Positions 45,022 through 49,218 of a stretch of 64,000 bases of DNA are shown here, piece by piece. This DNA is from Bacteroidales bacterium (GTDB lineage Bacteria; Bacteroidota; Bacteroidia; Bacteroidales; UBA12077). The notes below the pieces were generated by a model. The model searched no databases. It had not been told where the DNA came from and saw nothing but the letters and a program-made list of their open reading frames with translations. The position numbers and the translations under genes are program-made. How positions within the stretch are numbered: position 1 is the first letter of the stretch; each line of letters opens with the position of its first letter. The stretch spans positions 19,905 through 83,904 of the forward strand of contig JANQHR010000021.1 of NCBI GenBank assembly GCA_028282585.1, given 5' to 3'.

Positions 45022-47052
45022 TTATAGGGTAAGTGAAGCTCCGAAAACGCCACCTATCCACATTTTAATTTGGGTATTAGAAATTGTTTCGTTGTAAAAG
45101 GAGTAAGGTGCCAGATTTTTGAAAATACCGTTTTCTGAATAAACATTGGAAACATTTAATGATGGACCGGCAAATAATGAGAGGTAATTACCTAAATTTA
45201 TATCAAGTTTGGAAGTAAGTTTATTGATGTTTCCAACATAATTAAAAGAATCATTCAAGTCAACCATTAAATCAGATGATAATTCGAGATTCAGTTTATA
45301 TTTTTCTCCAAATTTCCATTGTGTTCCCATACCGTAACCTGCCGAAACAAATTCGTTAAAACCATAACCGATTTGGATCATATTGTAAAATTTAGGTATA
45401 CCCATTTTATAAGAAGTTCGGATCATCAAAAGTTCATCGGTTGAAACCTCAAAACGATGTAAACCCTTTTTTACAAAAGAAAAAACTCCAATTGGTAATC
45501 CGCTTTCGACAGTGTCAGAAACATTTAAAATTGCTAACTGATACCCATTAACCTTGTTAGCATAATTAAAATATCCTGCTAATTGAATTCCGTTTAAATC
45601 TTCGATGGCTATATTTACAGCACCTGCTAATTGATATTTACCTCCTGTTTTTCCATAGTTAATACCTCCTGCAATTTGTCCACCTGAAACTTCATTTTGA
45701 GATACATTCGCAAATCCTGCAACTTGAAAACCTTTTACAGATTTTCCATAATTTGCAAATCCAGACATTTGTCCCCAGTTTACATCACCCATAGCAAAAT
45801 TAGCAAAACCTGCCGCTTGCCCTCCATCTACATTATTACAATAATTTGCAAAACCTGCTAATTGTCCCAATTTAACATCTTTAATTGCAACATTTACAAA
45901 TCCTGTTAATTGAATACCATCAACATTTTGGGTTGTAACATTATTGAATCCGGAGATTTGGATTCCATTCATGTAACCATGAAGTGTATTGTTAAATCCA
46001 GCTAACTGAACACCAGTAAGAGTGTCCAATACAACATTACTCATTCCTCCAATTTGTGTTCCAGTTACAGATCCACTATTTAAATTAAAGAATCCAGCTA
46101 ATTGGAAAGGATTGGTATTTCCACCTACAATGTTGGCAAAACCTCCAATTTGAGCACCATAAACATCTCGGCGTACAATATTAACTAATCCGCCAATTTC
46201 GGTACCATTAATTCCTCCAGAATATCCAGCTAAAACATTAAATGAAAATGTATTGTCAACAGAACCACTTAATTTCCTATTAGTTCCTAAATAAGGTACA
46301 AATGAAACTTGGAAAATCCTTTTATCATAAATGACGAGGTTATCTGAAATGATTTTAGATTCATCAGGAACAAGGATATCTACCAATGCGCGGTTATGCA
46401 TGTCTTCCATTTTTACATGAACTGATTTCATCTTTTCCAATCGAGCATCATTTGGGTTTAAATAAATGTTAAAACTTTTCCTGTAAGCTGGTTCAACCAT
46501 GATAACCGTGTCAAGGTATCCTTTTTTACTATAGCTTAATCCGTGTATTTCTTTTTCATAAGGGATTTTGATAGAATAATAGCCCTCTGAATTTGATAAT
46601 GCCACTACTCTTCCTTCTACTTCATAAATGGTTGCTTCTTGAATTTTTTTTCCTGTTTGCGAATCGATTATATATCCTGTAATTATATACTCATTAGGTT
46701 GATTATTTGCCAATGCCCGTTTTGGAGGGTTCTTTTTATTTAGTATTACATGAGACCCTACGATTTTGTAATTGACCGAGTTATCAAAAAGTATATCTAA
46801 TGTTTTAGCAAGTGATTTATTTTCTGATTGTAGAGAAACCAACCTTTGTTCATCAAAGTTTTTTGAATTGTAAGAAAAGGTGAAACCTCCCTTTTCTGAA
46901 ATTTCAGCAAGTGCCTTTTCCAAGGGGATATCTGAAAAGGAAACAGAAATTCTTTTATATAGATAATTGGATTGTGAGAAAGAAGTATTACTAGAAAGAA
47001 TAAATAAAACGATTACTATATAAAACTTAGATATTTTTCTCCGTGCACCCAT
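45022..47052 (-). CDS. STN + carboxypeptidase-regulatory-like + LA_2272-like repeat outer-membrane protein
   Basis: STN-like PLEKALAEIS...FSYNS...LDILF..YKIVGSHVIL, ITGYIIDSQTG..ATIY, about 15 GxQxxGFxN repeats. Confidence 0.8.
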   Translation of the reverse strand: MGARRKISKFYIVIVLFILSSNTSFSQSNYLYKRISVSFSDIPLEKALAEISEKGGFTFSYNSKNFDEQRLVSLQSENKSLAKTLDILFDNSVNYKIVGSHVILNKKNPPKRALANNQPNEYIITGYIIDSQTGKKIQEATIYEVEGRVVALSNSEGYYSIKIPYEKEIHGLSYSKKGYLDTVIMVEPAYRKSFNIYLNPNDARLEKMKSVHVKMEDMHNRALVDILVPDESKIISDNLVIYDKRIFQVSFVPYLGTNRKLSGSVDNTFSFNVLAGYSGGINGTEIGGLVNIVRRDVYGAQIGGFANIVGGNTNPFQLAGFFNLNSGSVTGTQIGGMSNVVLDTLTGVQLAGFNNTLHGYMNGIQISGFNNVTTQNVDGIQLTGFVNVAIKDVKLGQLAGFANYCNNVDGGQAAGFANFAMGDVNWGQMSGFANYGKSVKGFQVAGFANVSQNEVSGGQIAGGINYGKTGGKYQLAGAVNIAIEDLNGIQLAGYFNYANKVNGYQLAILNVSDTVESGLPIGVFSFVKKGLHRFEVSTDELLMIRTSYKMGIPKFYNMIQIGYGFNEFVSAGYGMGTQWKFGEKYKLNLELSSDLMVDLNDSFNYVGNINKLTSKLDINLGNYLSLFAGPSLNVSNVYSENGIFKNLAPYSFYNETISNTQIKMWIGGVFGASLTL

Positions 47053-48058
47053 TTCCTTTTATTGTAAATGTGTTGTTTTCTTTGGTATATTCAAATTCGA
47101 AGGTTGCTGCTATTACTTCAATAATATCATCAATTGAATTATTTGAGAATGTTGTTGATAAACGGCACTCATAAATGCGTTCATCACTCACCTTGATTTC
47201 AATATTATAGTAATTCTCAAGTAAGCCAAATACTTTCTTAAGGTCCGTATCTGTAAATATCAATGTGTAATCCATCCAGAATAATTCATCTGGAATGCTT
47301 TCAGTTACATATATTGGTTCACGCTTTTCTTTTGACACTTTACCTTTTTCACCAGCCTTAAGCAGAATAGAAGTTGTATCCATGGTTTCAGAGTTAACCG
47401 TAAATAGTTGAACTAAACCATCTGTTACAATTACTTCAATTTCTGAATTTTCGTAAGCTTTAACGTTAAATGAAGTACCCAAGACTTTTACAAAAGCATT
47501 TTCAGCTTCAATTATAAATGGTTTTTCAGGATTATGCTCAACCTCGAAATATGCCTCACCCTTAAGTTTAACCCGTCTTTCGTTTTTAGCGAATTTTTCA
47601 GGATAAGTTATGTTTGTATTTGAATTTAATGCAATATTTGAACCATCTGGCAACGTTTCACGTAGGACTTCTTCTGCACTTGCAACTATAAGTTGTTGAG
47701 GTTGTTTAATAAGTAATTGGTAAACCCCAAATAAGACAACAATTGCAGCTGCGATGCCCGAAGAAATTAAAGTAAATCTTGATTTGAGAGAAATTGTTTT
47801 AGTTGACTTTTGTCCTTCTTCGTACTGGTCAATCCTATCAGACATTTTTTTCCATACCGACGGTGTATCAACAGCAACAGGATTGGGAGTAAGTTTTCCG
47901 GCTTCCGCCCAAACAGCTTCGTAGCTATCTAACAATTTTCGATTCTCATCAGACATTTCAATCCAGTCCTGAACTTGCAACAATTCATCTTTACTTGCTT
48001 CTCCAAGTAAGAATCTTAGAAGTAGCTTATCATCAATATGTCCAGAGTTTTTATTCAA
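47027..48058 (-). CDS. fecR: FecR-family anti-sigma factor
   Basis: One TM, LPDGS.IALN, RRVKLKGEAYFEV, VKVLGTSFNV. Confidence 0.95.
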   Translation of the reverse strand: MNKNSGHIDDKLLLRFLLGEASKDELLQVQDWIEMSDENRKLLDSYEAVWAEAGKLTPNPVAVDTPSVWKKMSDRIDQYEEGQKSTKTISLKSRFTLISSGIAAAIVVLFGVYQLLIKQPQQLIVASAEEVLRETLPDGSNIALNSNTNITYPEKFAKNERRVKLKGEAYFEVEHNPEKPFIIEAENAFVKVLGTSFNVKAYENSEIEVIVTDGLVQLFTVNSETMDTTSILLKAGEKGKVSKEKREPIYVTESIPDELFWMDYTLIFTDTDLKKVFGLLENYYNIEIKVSDERIYECRLSTTFSNNSIDDIIEVIAATFEFEYTKENNTFTIKGNGCTEKNI

Positions 48059-48092
48059 GGGCTTTTCTTATAATTTTAATTTTACTTTTTAT

Positions 48093-48129
48093 GATTTCAG
48101 ATTATGTGATTAACGTTGATGATTTTTGA
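48093..48129. repeat. Downstream periodic inverted-repeat arm of the four-helix-bundle cassette
   Basis: GATTTCAGA (48093), GATTAACG (48108), GATTTTTGA (48121); complementary to the upstream arm. Confidence 0.7.
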
Positions 48130-48495
48130 TTTGTTACGTTCAATATTCTTTTGAGCCGTTTCAGCACTTTTTACGAATATCGAAATTAACTCATCATTTT
48201 CTTTTAATGCCTTTTGTAACTTGTCTTCTGTTTTATACAATTGGGTCCTATGAATCAATTTTAAGCAAACAAAAGTTTCTCTTAATTCCTTAAGTACGAC
48301 TTTTATTTTATGTATAAAATCTTTTCTTGATTCTCCACTTTGCGCTTCTCCATAATTTAGTGCAGGTGAAGTTCCAGAGCGAACCAATTGACCCGATAGA
48401 TGATTACCTGCTTTTGTATTAGGCATTTCATTTACAATTTCTATAATTAAAACTGCAAAATTTATTAATCGTTCTTCTGGTTCAAATCTATTCAT
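48097..48495 (-). CDS. Four helix bundle protein (23S-IVS/Avd-like family)
   Basis: QLVRSGTSPALNYGEAQSGESRKDFIHK...KELRET signature. Confidence 0.92.
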   Translation of the reverse strand: MNRFEPEERLINFAVLIIEIVNEMPNTKAGNHLSGQLVRSGTSPALNYGEAQSGESRKDFIHKIKVVLKELRETFVCLKLIHRTQLYKTEDKLQKALKENDELISIFVKSAETAQKNIERNKSKIINVNHII

Positions 48496-48504
48496 CTGAT
48501 TTAT

Positions 48505-48541
48505 TCTAAAATCTTTATTCGTTAATCCTTGTTCTTAAATC
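48505..48541. repeat. Upstream 14-nt-periodic repeat arm of the four-helix-bundle cassette
   Basis: TCTAAAATC, CGTTAATC, TCTTAAATC ending at 48513, 48527, 48541. Confidence 0.7.
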
Positions 48542-48563
48542 ATTTACATAACTATCCATTATT

Positions 48564-48594
48564 ATGACAACTCAAATTTGATTTGCCTCTATCC
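48564..48594 (-). promoter_or_regulatory. Candidate ECF sigma promoter overlapping the sigma stop codon
   Basis: GGATAGAGG-N14-GTTGTCAT; the TAG in the -35 box is the sigma stop. Confidence 0.75.
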
Positions 48595-49191
48595 ATTTTT
48601 AAAAAAATCACTAAAAAACAATATAATCCATGGTAGATAATCCTTTAGCTCTTCCCGCAAAAACTTCAAAGCTTTTACCATTTGGTTTTCCACCGTACTT
48701 ACTGAAATGTTTAACTTATCAGCTATTTCTTTGTATTTTAATCCATCATATCGGCTAAGTATGAATACTTTTTTTCTTTCAATGGGTAATTGATCAATTG
48801 CCGCACGAATTCTCTGATCGAGTTCAGAAACAATCATTTCATCTTCTGAAGAAAGCTCATCAGCACGTTCGTATTCGTTCTGAACTTTATAATCTTCTCG
48901 AATATTTACATGTTTTAATACATTGAGGCTAGCATTTCTAATAGCTCTAAAAAGATAACTCTGAATTGATGAAGTTATAATGATTGATTCCCGATTAGTC
49001 CAGAGTTTAAATAATACTTCCTGTACTACCTCTTCAGATGCATCAGCGTCTTTAAGGAAATTATTCGCATATGCACATAAAATACTGTAATGAGCATTGA
49101 AAATTTTTTCAAAATCGGTTTTCGACTCAATCTTGCCTTTCGGCAGACAGATCTTTATTCCTTTATGTGTTGCTGTTTCGCCCAATGTCAT
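48589..49191 (-). CDS. ECF sigma-70 factor (Bacteroidota FecI-like)
   Basis: SEEVVQEVLFKLW, SYLFRAIRN, LP..RKKVFILSRYDGLKYKEIA..LNISVSTVENQM. Confidence 0.95.
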   Translation of the reverse strand: MTLGETATHKGIKICLPKGKIESKTDFEKIFNAHYSILCAYANNFLKDADASEEVVQEVLFKLWTNRESIIITSSIQSYLFRAIRNASLNVLKHVNIREDYKVQNEYERADELSSEDEMIVSELDQRIRAAIDQLPIERKKVFILSRYDGLKYKEIADKLNISVSTVENQMVKALKFLREELKDYLPWIILFFSDFFKNG

Positions 49192-49193
49192 AT

Positions 49194-49218
49194 AAAAATC
49201 CCCCTAGTGAAAGGGGGA
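49194..49218 (-). terminator. Intrinsic terminator after metG
   Basis: TCCCCCT-TTCACT-AGGGGGA followed by TTTTT on the minus strand. Confidence 0.7.

Follow-up and report, generated by a model that had tools for sequence, protein, structure and literature searches.

The window analysed here, a 64,000-nt stretch of contig JANQHR010000021.1 from a Bacteroidales bacterium (GenBank assembly GCA_028282585.1), harbours an operon in which a gene for an extracytoplasmic function (ECF) sigma factor precedes a fecR-type anti-sigma gene, itself followed by a gene encoding an STN-domain protein. Inserted between the sigma factor gene and fecR is a cassette consisting of a gene for a protein of the S23p/Avd fold, flanked by two inverted arrays of 7-nt words. 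The cassette encodes no transposase, contains no terminator-like site and is oriented in the same direction as the operon. Throughout, coordinates are window positions and the complementary blocks are given on the mRNA (minus) strand; G000 denotes the focal genome, G046 its closest sampled congener, and L numbers individual loci. In order of transcription, the features of the region are as follows.

49199-49218: terminator-like hairpin of the upstream gene metG.
48589..49191, minus strand: ECF sigma factor gene, the first of the operon (Pfam Sigma70_r2, Sigma70_r4_2 and Sigma70_ECF).
48544..48549, minus strand: left junction, with the relic of the ancestral fecR start (ATG at 48549-48547) and TAA directly after it, recognised by comparison with congeners.
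48056..48546, minus strand: inserted segment of approximately 491 nt, comprising TAA, the cassette proper (48091-48543) and a tail, delimited by eight empty orthologous loci and the filled locus of G046.
48496..48543, minus strand: 5' arm, a GAnnnnn heptamer array containing the three upstream blocks.
48541-48533, minus strand: upstream block 1, GATTTAAGA.
48527-48520, minus strand: upstream block 2, GATTAACG.
48513-48505, minus strand: upstream block 3, GATTTTAGA.
48097..48495, minus strand: four-helix-bundle gene, 132 aa (PF05635, TIGR02436), the last 11 codons and stop of which extend into the 3' arm.
48091..48132, minus strand: 3' arm, an inverted, partly decayed heptamer array containing the three downstream blocks, which pairs with the 5' arm in the minimum free energy (MFE) and centroid structures.
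48129-48121, minus strand: downstream block 1, TCAAAAATC.
48115-48108, minus strand: downstream block 2, CGTTAATC.
48101-48093, minus strand: downstream block 3, TCTGAAATC.
48056..48090, minus strand: A-rich tail of 35 nt, which provides the TTG start of fecR and is without counterpart in the cassettes of relatives.
47027..48058, minus strand: fecR-type anti-sigma gene, with a TTG start (Pfam FecR and FecR_C).

A sequence-only reading of this DNA had described three short blocks upstream of the four-helix-bundle gene, recurring at an exact 14-nt period and pairing in nested order with three blocks around the end of the gene. Both the spacing (starts at 48541, 48527 and 48513) and the pairing (8/9, 8/8 and 8/9 positions) were recovered, as was the overlap with the coding sequence: the TGA codon (48099-48097) falls within the last downstream block, and the open reading frame (ORF), 48097-48495, spans the other two. 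The 5' starts of the downstream blocks are likewise 14 nt apart, and the pairing is anchored at their ...ATC 3' ends, separated by 13 and 15 nt. When 48085-48550 was folded with RNAfold, all three helices, of approximately 10, 8 and 6 bp, were present in the MFE and centroid structures, such that the whole ORF is closed off; the fold has a z score of -4.11, and none of 100 shuffled sequences folded equally well. No match to Rfam was found at E <= 1 in 47900-48750, and none to PADLOC at E <= 0.01.

The complementarity of the arms also stands up against dinucleotide-preserving shuffles, taken with 60-nt and 50-nt flanks, of which only 1-2 per 1000 match it. The duplex energy is -20.1, compared with -8.1 ± 2.4 in shuffles (1/1000 as good), and the local alignment score 28, compared with 15.7 ± 2.9 (2/1000 as good). 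Among 3096 control genes of the same genome, 34 (1.1%) and 27 (0.9%) do as well in tight windows, which were chosen after the arms had been seen. The pairing at the focal locus, taken alone, is suggestive; as decisive evidence for the arm layout we take the homology of the arms to those of other cassettes.

This homology is centred on the 5' arm, which carries the 16-nt motif of the subfamily, GAACAAGGATTAACGA, with no mismatches and as the sole exact copy in the 4.89-Mb genome; it also gives stop codons in all three frames. The words around the motif follow a GAnnnnn heptamer phase, in which the two GA positions are the most conserved. Upstream of the focal gene, autocorrelation reaches 0.64 at lag 14 (p = 0.002 against the 3096 control upstream regions), 0.49 at lag 7 (p = 0.04) and 0.52 at lag 21 (p = 0.037); downstream, it is 0.49 at lag 7 (p = 0.025) and not significant at lag 14 (0.36). 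The underlying period of the arms is 7 nt, the 14-nt spacing corresponding to two heptamers. The focal 3' arm retains both ends of the subfamily 3' arm and has lost the stretch complementary to GAACAAGG, a part of the 5' arm. Since in relatives the motif and its complement are continuous, and this stretch is missing from the focal 3' arm, the regularly spaced internal loops of the focal stem are the product of decay of a longer stem rather than of design. Of the long stem formerly proposed to loop out the ORF, the closure of the ORF is therefore upheld by the MFE and centroid structures, and the notion of a designed 14-nt lattice of internal loops is not.

The 5'-arm word is also dispersed in other DNA of the same habitat: contigs from two other runs of the same study match 48503-48545, the 5'-arm stretch alone, at 90-95% identity and with unrelated flanks. 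Among contigs from three DNA runs of that study, one spans the locus, and none contains a joint lacking the cassette at this site.

A scan of species-representative genomes identified 80 loci encoding proteins 58-87% identical to the focal protein, in metagenome-assembled genomes labelled as Bacteroidota, Ignavibacteria, Neomarinimicrobiota, Armatimonadota, Cloacimonadota, Calditrichota, Victivallales and Chlorobiota. These labels span at least eight phyla or classes. One of the loci (L060) is an intact cassette of the culturable Perlabentimonas gracilis; Bacteroides thetaiotaomicron likewise has PF05635 genes. These cassettes sit in unrelated operons. Allowing up to three mismatches, GAACAAGGATTAACGA was found within 200 nt upstream of the gene in 61 of the 80, its reverse complement downstream in 52, and both in 46. 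The two arms of one locus pair with a mean score of 38.2, better than arms combined from different loci, which average 31.3 (permutation p = 2e-4); in only 7 of 79 loci was the cassette's own arm the best of all possible partners.

Some of these arms have a more complex structure. In five loci (L137:1420-2030, which is the orthologous cassette of G046, L048, L054, L123 and L134), a 20-nt GC-rich palindrome lies within an arm, between two heptamers; GC-rich hairpins that look alike by eye flank the Y1 transposase genes of the focal genome (G000:C116:72100-72534 and G000:C9), and the palindromes may represent a second, smaller mobile hairpin that lands in arms. The upstream flanks of L076, L067, L093 and L056 contain three to four tandem copies of the 5'-arm motif, at spacings of 34, 48, 57 and 59 nt, so from their sequence the arms can evidently be amplified as larger units. 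Downstream of the genes at L047, L055, L087, L105 and L109, an array of the 5'-arm type replaces or follows the 3' arm, and at L087 the same stretch of approximately 33 nt is present on both sides of the gene. This arrangement points to cassettes in tandem, or to genes with a complete hairpin on either side.

Comparable layouts are found elsewhere in the focal genome, which has 20 matches to PF05635, among them 12 intact ORFs of at least 100 aa by our own ORF calls. Every paralogue uses a set of short upstream words peculiar to it, which are matched by complementary words at the stop codon or beyond. As the sequence-only reading had anticipated, periodic and complementary flanks thus recur around other family members: pooled over the 12 intact paralogues, autocorrelation is strongest at lag 7 (0.44, against 0.33 in the 3096 controls), and complementarity exceeds that of control genes by both alignment score (Mann-Whitney p = 1.3e-5) and duplex energy (p = 1e-5 in the sense and 5e-5 in the antisense orientation). 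Taken one by one, seven of the 12 paralogues are significant (p <= 0.05) on sense duplex energy and three on alignment score, such that the armed layout is frequent among paralogues and not universal.

The same genome contains hairpins of approximately 80-100 nt that are composed of the focal arm words and enclose no gene (G000:C45:2320-2398, G000:C120:11193-11280 and G000:C131:2218-2298). In these, the 5'-arm motif, with two to three mismatches, is followed 62-71 nt downstream by its complement, and RNAfold returns a single hairpin for each. Of the three Y1_Tnp genes in the genome, that at G000:C116:72100-72534 lies approximately 1.3 kb from two cassettes; it encodes a 144-aa transposase of the Y1 (IS200/RAYT) type, where RAYT denotes tyrosine transposases associated with repetitive extragenic palindromic (REP) sequences, and is found in an operon-like stretch with several four-helix-bundle cassettes, preceded by three heptamers of the GAAAAT type and followed by a GC-rich hairpin. 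Across the 98 loci searched, Y1 matches were confined to this locus and its orthologue in G046.

The history of the insertion can be read from orthologous loci. FecR orthologues 65-89% identical to the focal protein were found in 10 congeners, and the order metG, sigma factor, fecR and STN-domain gene was retained wherever the available DNA extended. That sigma factor and fecR genes are normally adjacent, as had been assumed, is borne out by eight of these 10 loci, which are empty, with a spacer of 41-45 nt; they define the insert as 48056-48546, a segment of approximately 491 nt in which the four-helix-bundle gene is the sole ORF, in agreement with the earlier description of a transposase-free unit. 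Seven of the eight empty loci have a conserved TAATG (CTATTG in L025), then 7 nt, then the fecR ATG; the interval is 6 nt in L023. The focal genome retains TAATG, 7 nt and ATG, after which come TAA, the cassette and the 35-nt tail ending in TTG.

Among the 10 congeners the cassette is present only in G046 (FecR 88.6% and sigma factor 92% identical), with the same junctions and the same layout: TAATG, 7 nt and ATA, with a tail that is similar in length and likewise terminates in TTG. Correspondingly, fecR starts with TTG in G000 and G046, and with ATG in the eight empty loci and in L030. Because the junctions are the same in both genomes and the congener loci are empty, comparison of these sequences shows that the insertion took place immediately downstream of the fecR start codon, in an ancestor shared by G000 and G046. 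Neither a target-site duplication nor a direct repeat was found at the junctions when filled and empty sites were compared at this one junction pair, and the sequence beyond the 3' arm differs in every relative's cassette. In the remaining congener (G019), the spacer between the sigma factor gene and fecR is occupied by 250 nt of unrelated filler (L030:1250-1500). This filler was considered as a cassette remnant and rejected, its sole inverted repeat being a 21-nt, 71%-complementary palindrome near its end, and its fold being no better than that of shuffled sequences (z score 0.36).

The enclosed gene was said by the sequence-only reading to belong to the family first described in 23S rRNA intervening sequences (IVSs) and to share the fold of Avd from diversity-generating retroelements (DGRs), an assignment that proved correct. 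The protein matches PF05635 (E = 4.5e-12; 46.6 bits against a cut-off of 33.8) and TIGR02436 (E = 9.7e-22; 77.3 bits against a cut-off of 24), and its nearest solved relative is BT_0352 (PDB 2RLD; E = 1.5e-12). The AlphaFold2 model, with a predicted local distance difference test score of 91.9, has helices at residues 4-22, 28-51, 57-84 and 90-131. Foldseek aligns it with 2RLD and 2GSC at template modelling (TM) scores of 0.71-0.89 and with Avd chains (4DWL, 8UB7) at 0.66-0.82, the sequence identity being 30-32% to BT_0352 as against 11-14% to Avd. 2RLD consists of five chains of one sequence, and the focal protein is probably a pentameric barrel, by analogy with its solved relatives. The family has a conserved motif, GxxRxxxSxxxNxxE (PMC3936711), of which the RxxxSxxxNxxE part is matched by RSGTSPALNYGE in the ORF translation, with the leading G one residue farther away than in the published motif. 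Q36, G41, N47 and E50 are invariant among 46 aligned sequences, at least 90% of which also share R39 and S43. At 48486-48493 on the minus strand, beginning four bases inside the ORF, TAGATTTG fits TAnnTTTG, the -7 promoter word of Bacteroidetes; the word does not occur between the 3' arm and the fecR start.

Patterns of substitution indicate that the gene is under purifying selection. Across 52 relatives, mean identity is 0.72 for amino acids and 0.48 at third codon positions. Between G000 and G046, the dN/dS of the cassette ORF is 0.10 and dS 1.27 (129 codons, read across the two 1-nt indels of G046), with 39% of synonymous sites identical (pS 0.61). Over the same divergence, 41/47 positions are identical from the 5' arm through to the ATG, 26/42 in the 3' arm and 18/32 in the tail. 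Given that arms of the same locus pair better with one another and that the 5' arm is so well conserved, both pairing and the 5'-arm sequence itself look constrained.

Cassettes also tend to be oriented with the genes around them. By a crude open-frame call, which left the remaining neighbours uncallable, both neighbours of the gene are co-directional in 34 of the 80 relatives and both opposite in two; on the left, 59 neighbours share the direction of the cassette and nine oppose it, and on the right 47 and 11, respectively. In the focal genome, eight of 12 cassettes are co-directional with both neighbours. Co-direction, together with the lack of a terminator, fits dependence on read-through transcription from the host; strand-specific insertion of DNA could give the same bias.

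We consider it reasonably probable that the focal insert is an old, IVS-like selfish cassette, its arms worn, that still encodes its protein and is transcribed with the operon. The promoter of the sigma factor gene would transcribe the cassette together with fecR, translation of which would begin at the TTG supplied by the insert, and the arms would pair in the RNA, looping out the ORF. Where a relative's arms are well kept, pairing of the motif with its complement should yield a long stem that, by analogy with the ORF-bearing 23S rRNA IVSs, would be cut by RNase III, for which the focal genome has a gene (G000:C37:8997-9362); the product of cleavage would be a separate mRNA, closed by the hairpin, that encodes the small protein. 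Such well-kept copies are, on this analogy, likely RNase III substrates. Cutting of the focal copy is doubtful, because only its three short helices survive. The protein, maintained by selection, would most likely have the arm RNA as its target, much as Avd binds its stem-loop, and the class as a whole would behave as a selfish element, spread horizontally by machinery provided in trans.

A number of observations weigh against this interpretation. In wider windows that were fixed beforehand, the focal arms taken by themselves do not stand out among real genes, ranking at 8.5% by duplex energy (1500 controls) and 12.9% by alignment (3096 controls). The surviving helices are short and AU-rich, with loops of 5-6 nt between them, and make a poor substrate for RNase III. 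The arm layout is not universal, with both motifs present in 46/80 relatives and seven of 12 paralogues at p <= 0.05 by duplex energy. The G046 copy has one +1 and one -1 indel, such that loss of the gene is possible. Between G000 and G046, conservation is much higher in the 5' arm (41/47) than in the 3' arm (26/42); selection for pairing alone would not account for this difference, which speaks for a sequence-specific function of the 5' arm. Finally, the sense and antisense strands pair almost equally well, the 12 paralogues showing no difference and the 80 relatives a sense strand that is better in 47 cases and worse in 33 (Wilcoxon p = 0.011, the loci not being independent); for this reason pairing could matter in DNA rather than RNA.

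The foremost alternative is that the arms act as DNA. The cassette would then be a non-autonomous hairpin transposon, resembling a miniature inverted-repeat transposable element (MITE) with cargo, moved as a folded single strand by an HUH/Y1 transposase of the IS200/IS605 or RAYT type encoded elsewhere, with the protein as cargo or helper. In favour of this, the two strands pair almost equally, the genome has three Y1_Tnp genes, one of them (C116:72100-72534) approximately 1.3 kb from two cassettes, and the gene-less hairpins with the same arms are what non-autonomous derivatives should look like. IS200/IS605 elements insert strand-specifically into the lagging-strand template, which could also yield the orientation bias observed. 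We nevertheless judge this explanation unlikely. No Y1_Tnp homologue lies within 1.5 kb at any of the 80 relatives' loci, the one readable junction pair has neither a target-site duplication nor a conserved target, and the AT-rich heptamer arrays of the arms do not resemble the GC-rich hairpins of REP type found beside Y1 genes in this genome; the strong conservation of the protein would also be left unexplained.

Less probable still, in our estimation, is that the insert has been domesticated, its stem and spacer setting the ratio of sigma to anti-sigma expression as an element of RNA processing or stability. This would explain why the insert persists. In its favour are the retention of the insert by two genomes that have diverged to a dS of ~1.3, the strong conservation of the 5' arm between them, the dependence of fecR on the TTG start of the insert, and the absence of a terminator-like site within it. 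Against it, eight of 10 orthologous operons do without the insert, the tail adjoining fecR is poorly conserved (18/32), and the occurrence of the same cassette in unrelated operons across many phyla makes any local role secondary.

There is very little probability that the gene is an ordinary small one and that its AT-rich, low-complexity intergenic surroundings produced the complementary blocks by chance, as the rank of the focal locus in wide windows (8.5-12.9% of control genes) and the GC content of the genome (32%) might suggest: 1-2/1000 shuffles and, in tight windows, approximately 1% of control genes do as well, and the reading is already contradicted by arm homology, given the exact copy of a motif found in 61/80 relatives, with its complement downstream in 52/80, and the layout shared by paralogues and gene-less hairpins. 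That the gene is an avd stranded by the decay of a DGR, on the strength of its Avd-like fold and of PF05635 being the commonest accessory family near DGR reverse transcriptases (PMC10053308), can practically be dismissed, since the 98.35%-complete genome has no RVT_1 match at E <= 1e-5, the neighbours are metG, the sigma factor gene, fecR and the STN-domain gene, and no long direct repeat that could be a template or variable candidate was reported in 47950-48700.

The interpretation of the insert as a worn selfish cassette can be extended, tentatively and with rather more doubt than belief, to all armed cassettes. These might form one cross-phylum class of autonomous selfish elements acting at the RNA level, in which a pentamer reads the heptamer stem of its own transcript and RNase III frees the unit; the 23S rRNA IVSs would be its rRNA niche, and heptamer arrays and gene-less hairpins its footprints. 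To our knowledge, genes of PF05635/TIGR02436 have no known function outside DGRs, and rRNA IVSs have been an unexplained curiosity since the 1990s. If it is true that a stem-gene-stem unit colonises ordinary operons across phyla, then three puzzles (what the four-helix-bundle protein is for, where rRNA IVSs come from and how intergenic heptamer repeats arise) would become one testable system. The focal locus provides a clean natural experiment, with dated filled and empty sites, an insertion at a start codon repaired by the host with TTG, and an orthologous pair, G000 and G046, in which the protein and 5' arm are strongly constrained while the 3' arm and tail drift. In the literature found, which covers rRNA IVSs, Avd, PF05635 genes near cas loci and heptamer direct repeats and excludes subscription journals outside its coverage, nothing links armed four-helix-bundle cassettes to ordinary operons, and no description was found of non-rRNA copies with flanking repeats.

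Several known systems share part of this organisation. MITEs and the REP and bacterial interspersed mosaic elements (BIMEs) are short, transposase-free inverted-repeat units mobilised in trans by RAYT/Y1 transposases. The focal cassette is similarly transposase-free and bounded by inverted repeats, in a genome with scattered gene-less hairpins and Y1 genes. Unlike them, it carries a conserved protein gene and has AT-rich heptamer arms, with no target-site duplication seen and no Y1 gene linked to it at the 80 relatives' loci.

A second likeness is to the heptamer direct repeats reported from intergenic regions of Beggiatoaceae, Cyanobacteria and five Bacteroidetes, for example the TAACTGA arrays (PMC4679880). 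These are also tandem 7-nt words lying just before start codons, with stops in three frames and a patchy, apparently horizontal distribution. The words differ, and, unlike the focal inverted pair, the arrays described there are direct (169 sets, one of them indirect). The text of that paper contains no occurrence of "23S" or "helix bundle"; the focal arrays enclose a four-helix-bundle gene.

The closest characterised system is the ORF-bearing 23S rRNA IVS, as found in helix 45 of Coxiella burnetii and in Leptospira, which is excised by RNase III; in the C. burnetii IVS, a 28-bp terminal stem encloses the S23p ORF and RNase III cuts in mid-stem (PMC4990558). Both are units of approximately 430-500 nt with one S23p/PF05635 ORF in the loop of a terminal-inverted-repeat stem; both lie in the sense orientation within a host transcript and lack a transposase, and the IVS too is regarded as selfish. 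The focal cassette differs in its host, the mRNA of a sigma-fecR operon rather than a 23S rRNA helix, and in its arms: in place of a plain 28-bp stem it has arrays of 7-nt words, of whose stem decay has left three short helices in this copy.

For the protein, the relevant comparison is Avd, with which it shares the four-helix-bundle fold (TM 0.66-0.82 to PDB 4DWL and 8UB7). The focal sequence is much closer to the stand-alone BT_0352 (2RLD), and, unlike Avd, it is accompanied by no reverse transcriptase in its genome and no template or variable repeats in the stretch examined; the lack of an RVT_1 reverse transcriptase leaves next to no probability of a role in a DGR. Avd is a pentameric basic barrel that holds an 11-bp RNA stem-loop, bases of which are flipped out and accommodated between the protomers (10.1101/2023.10.23.563531), and it provides a precedent for this fold reading a hairpin beside its own gene.

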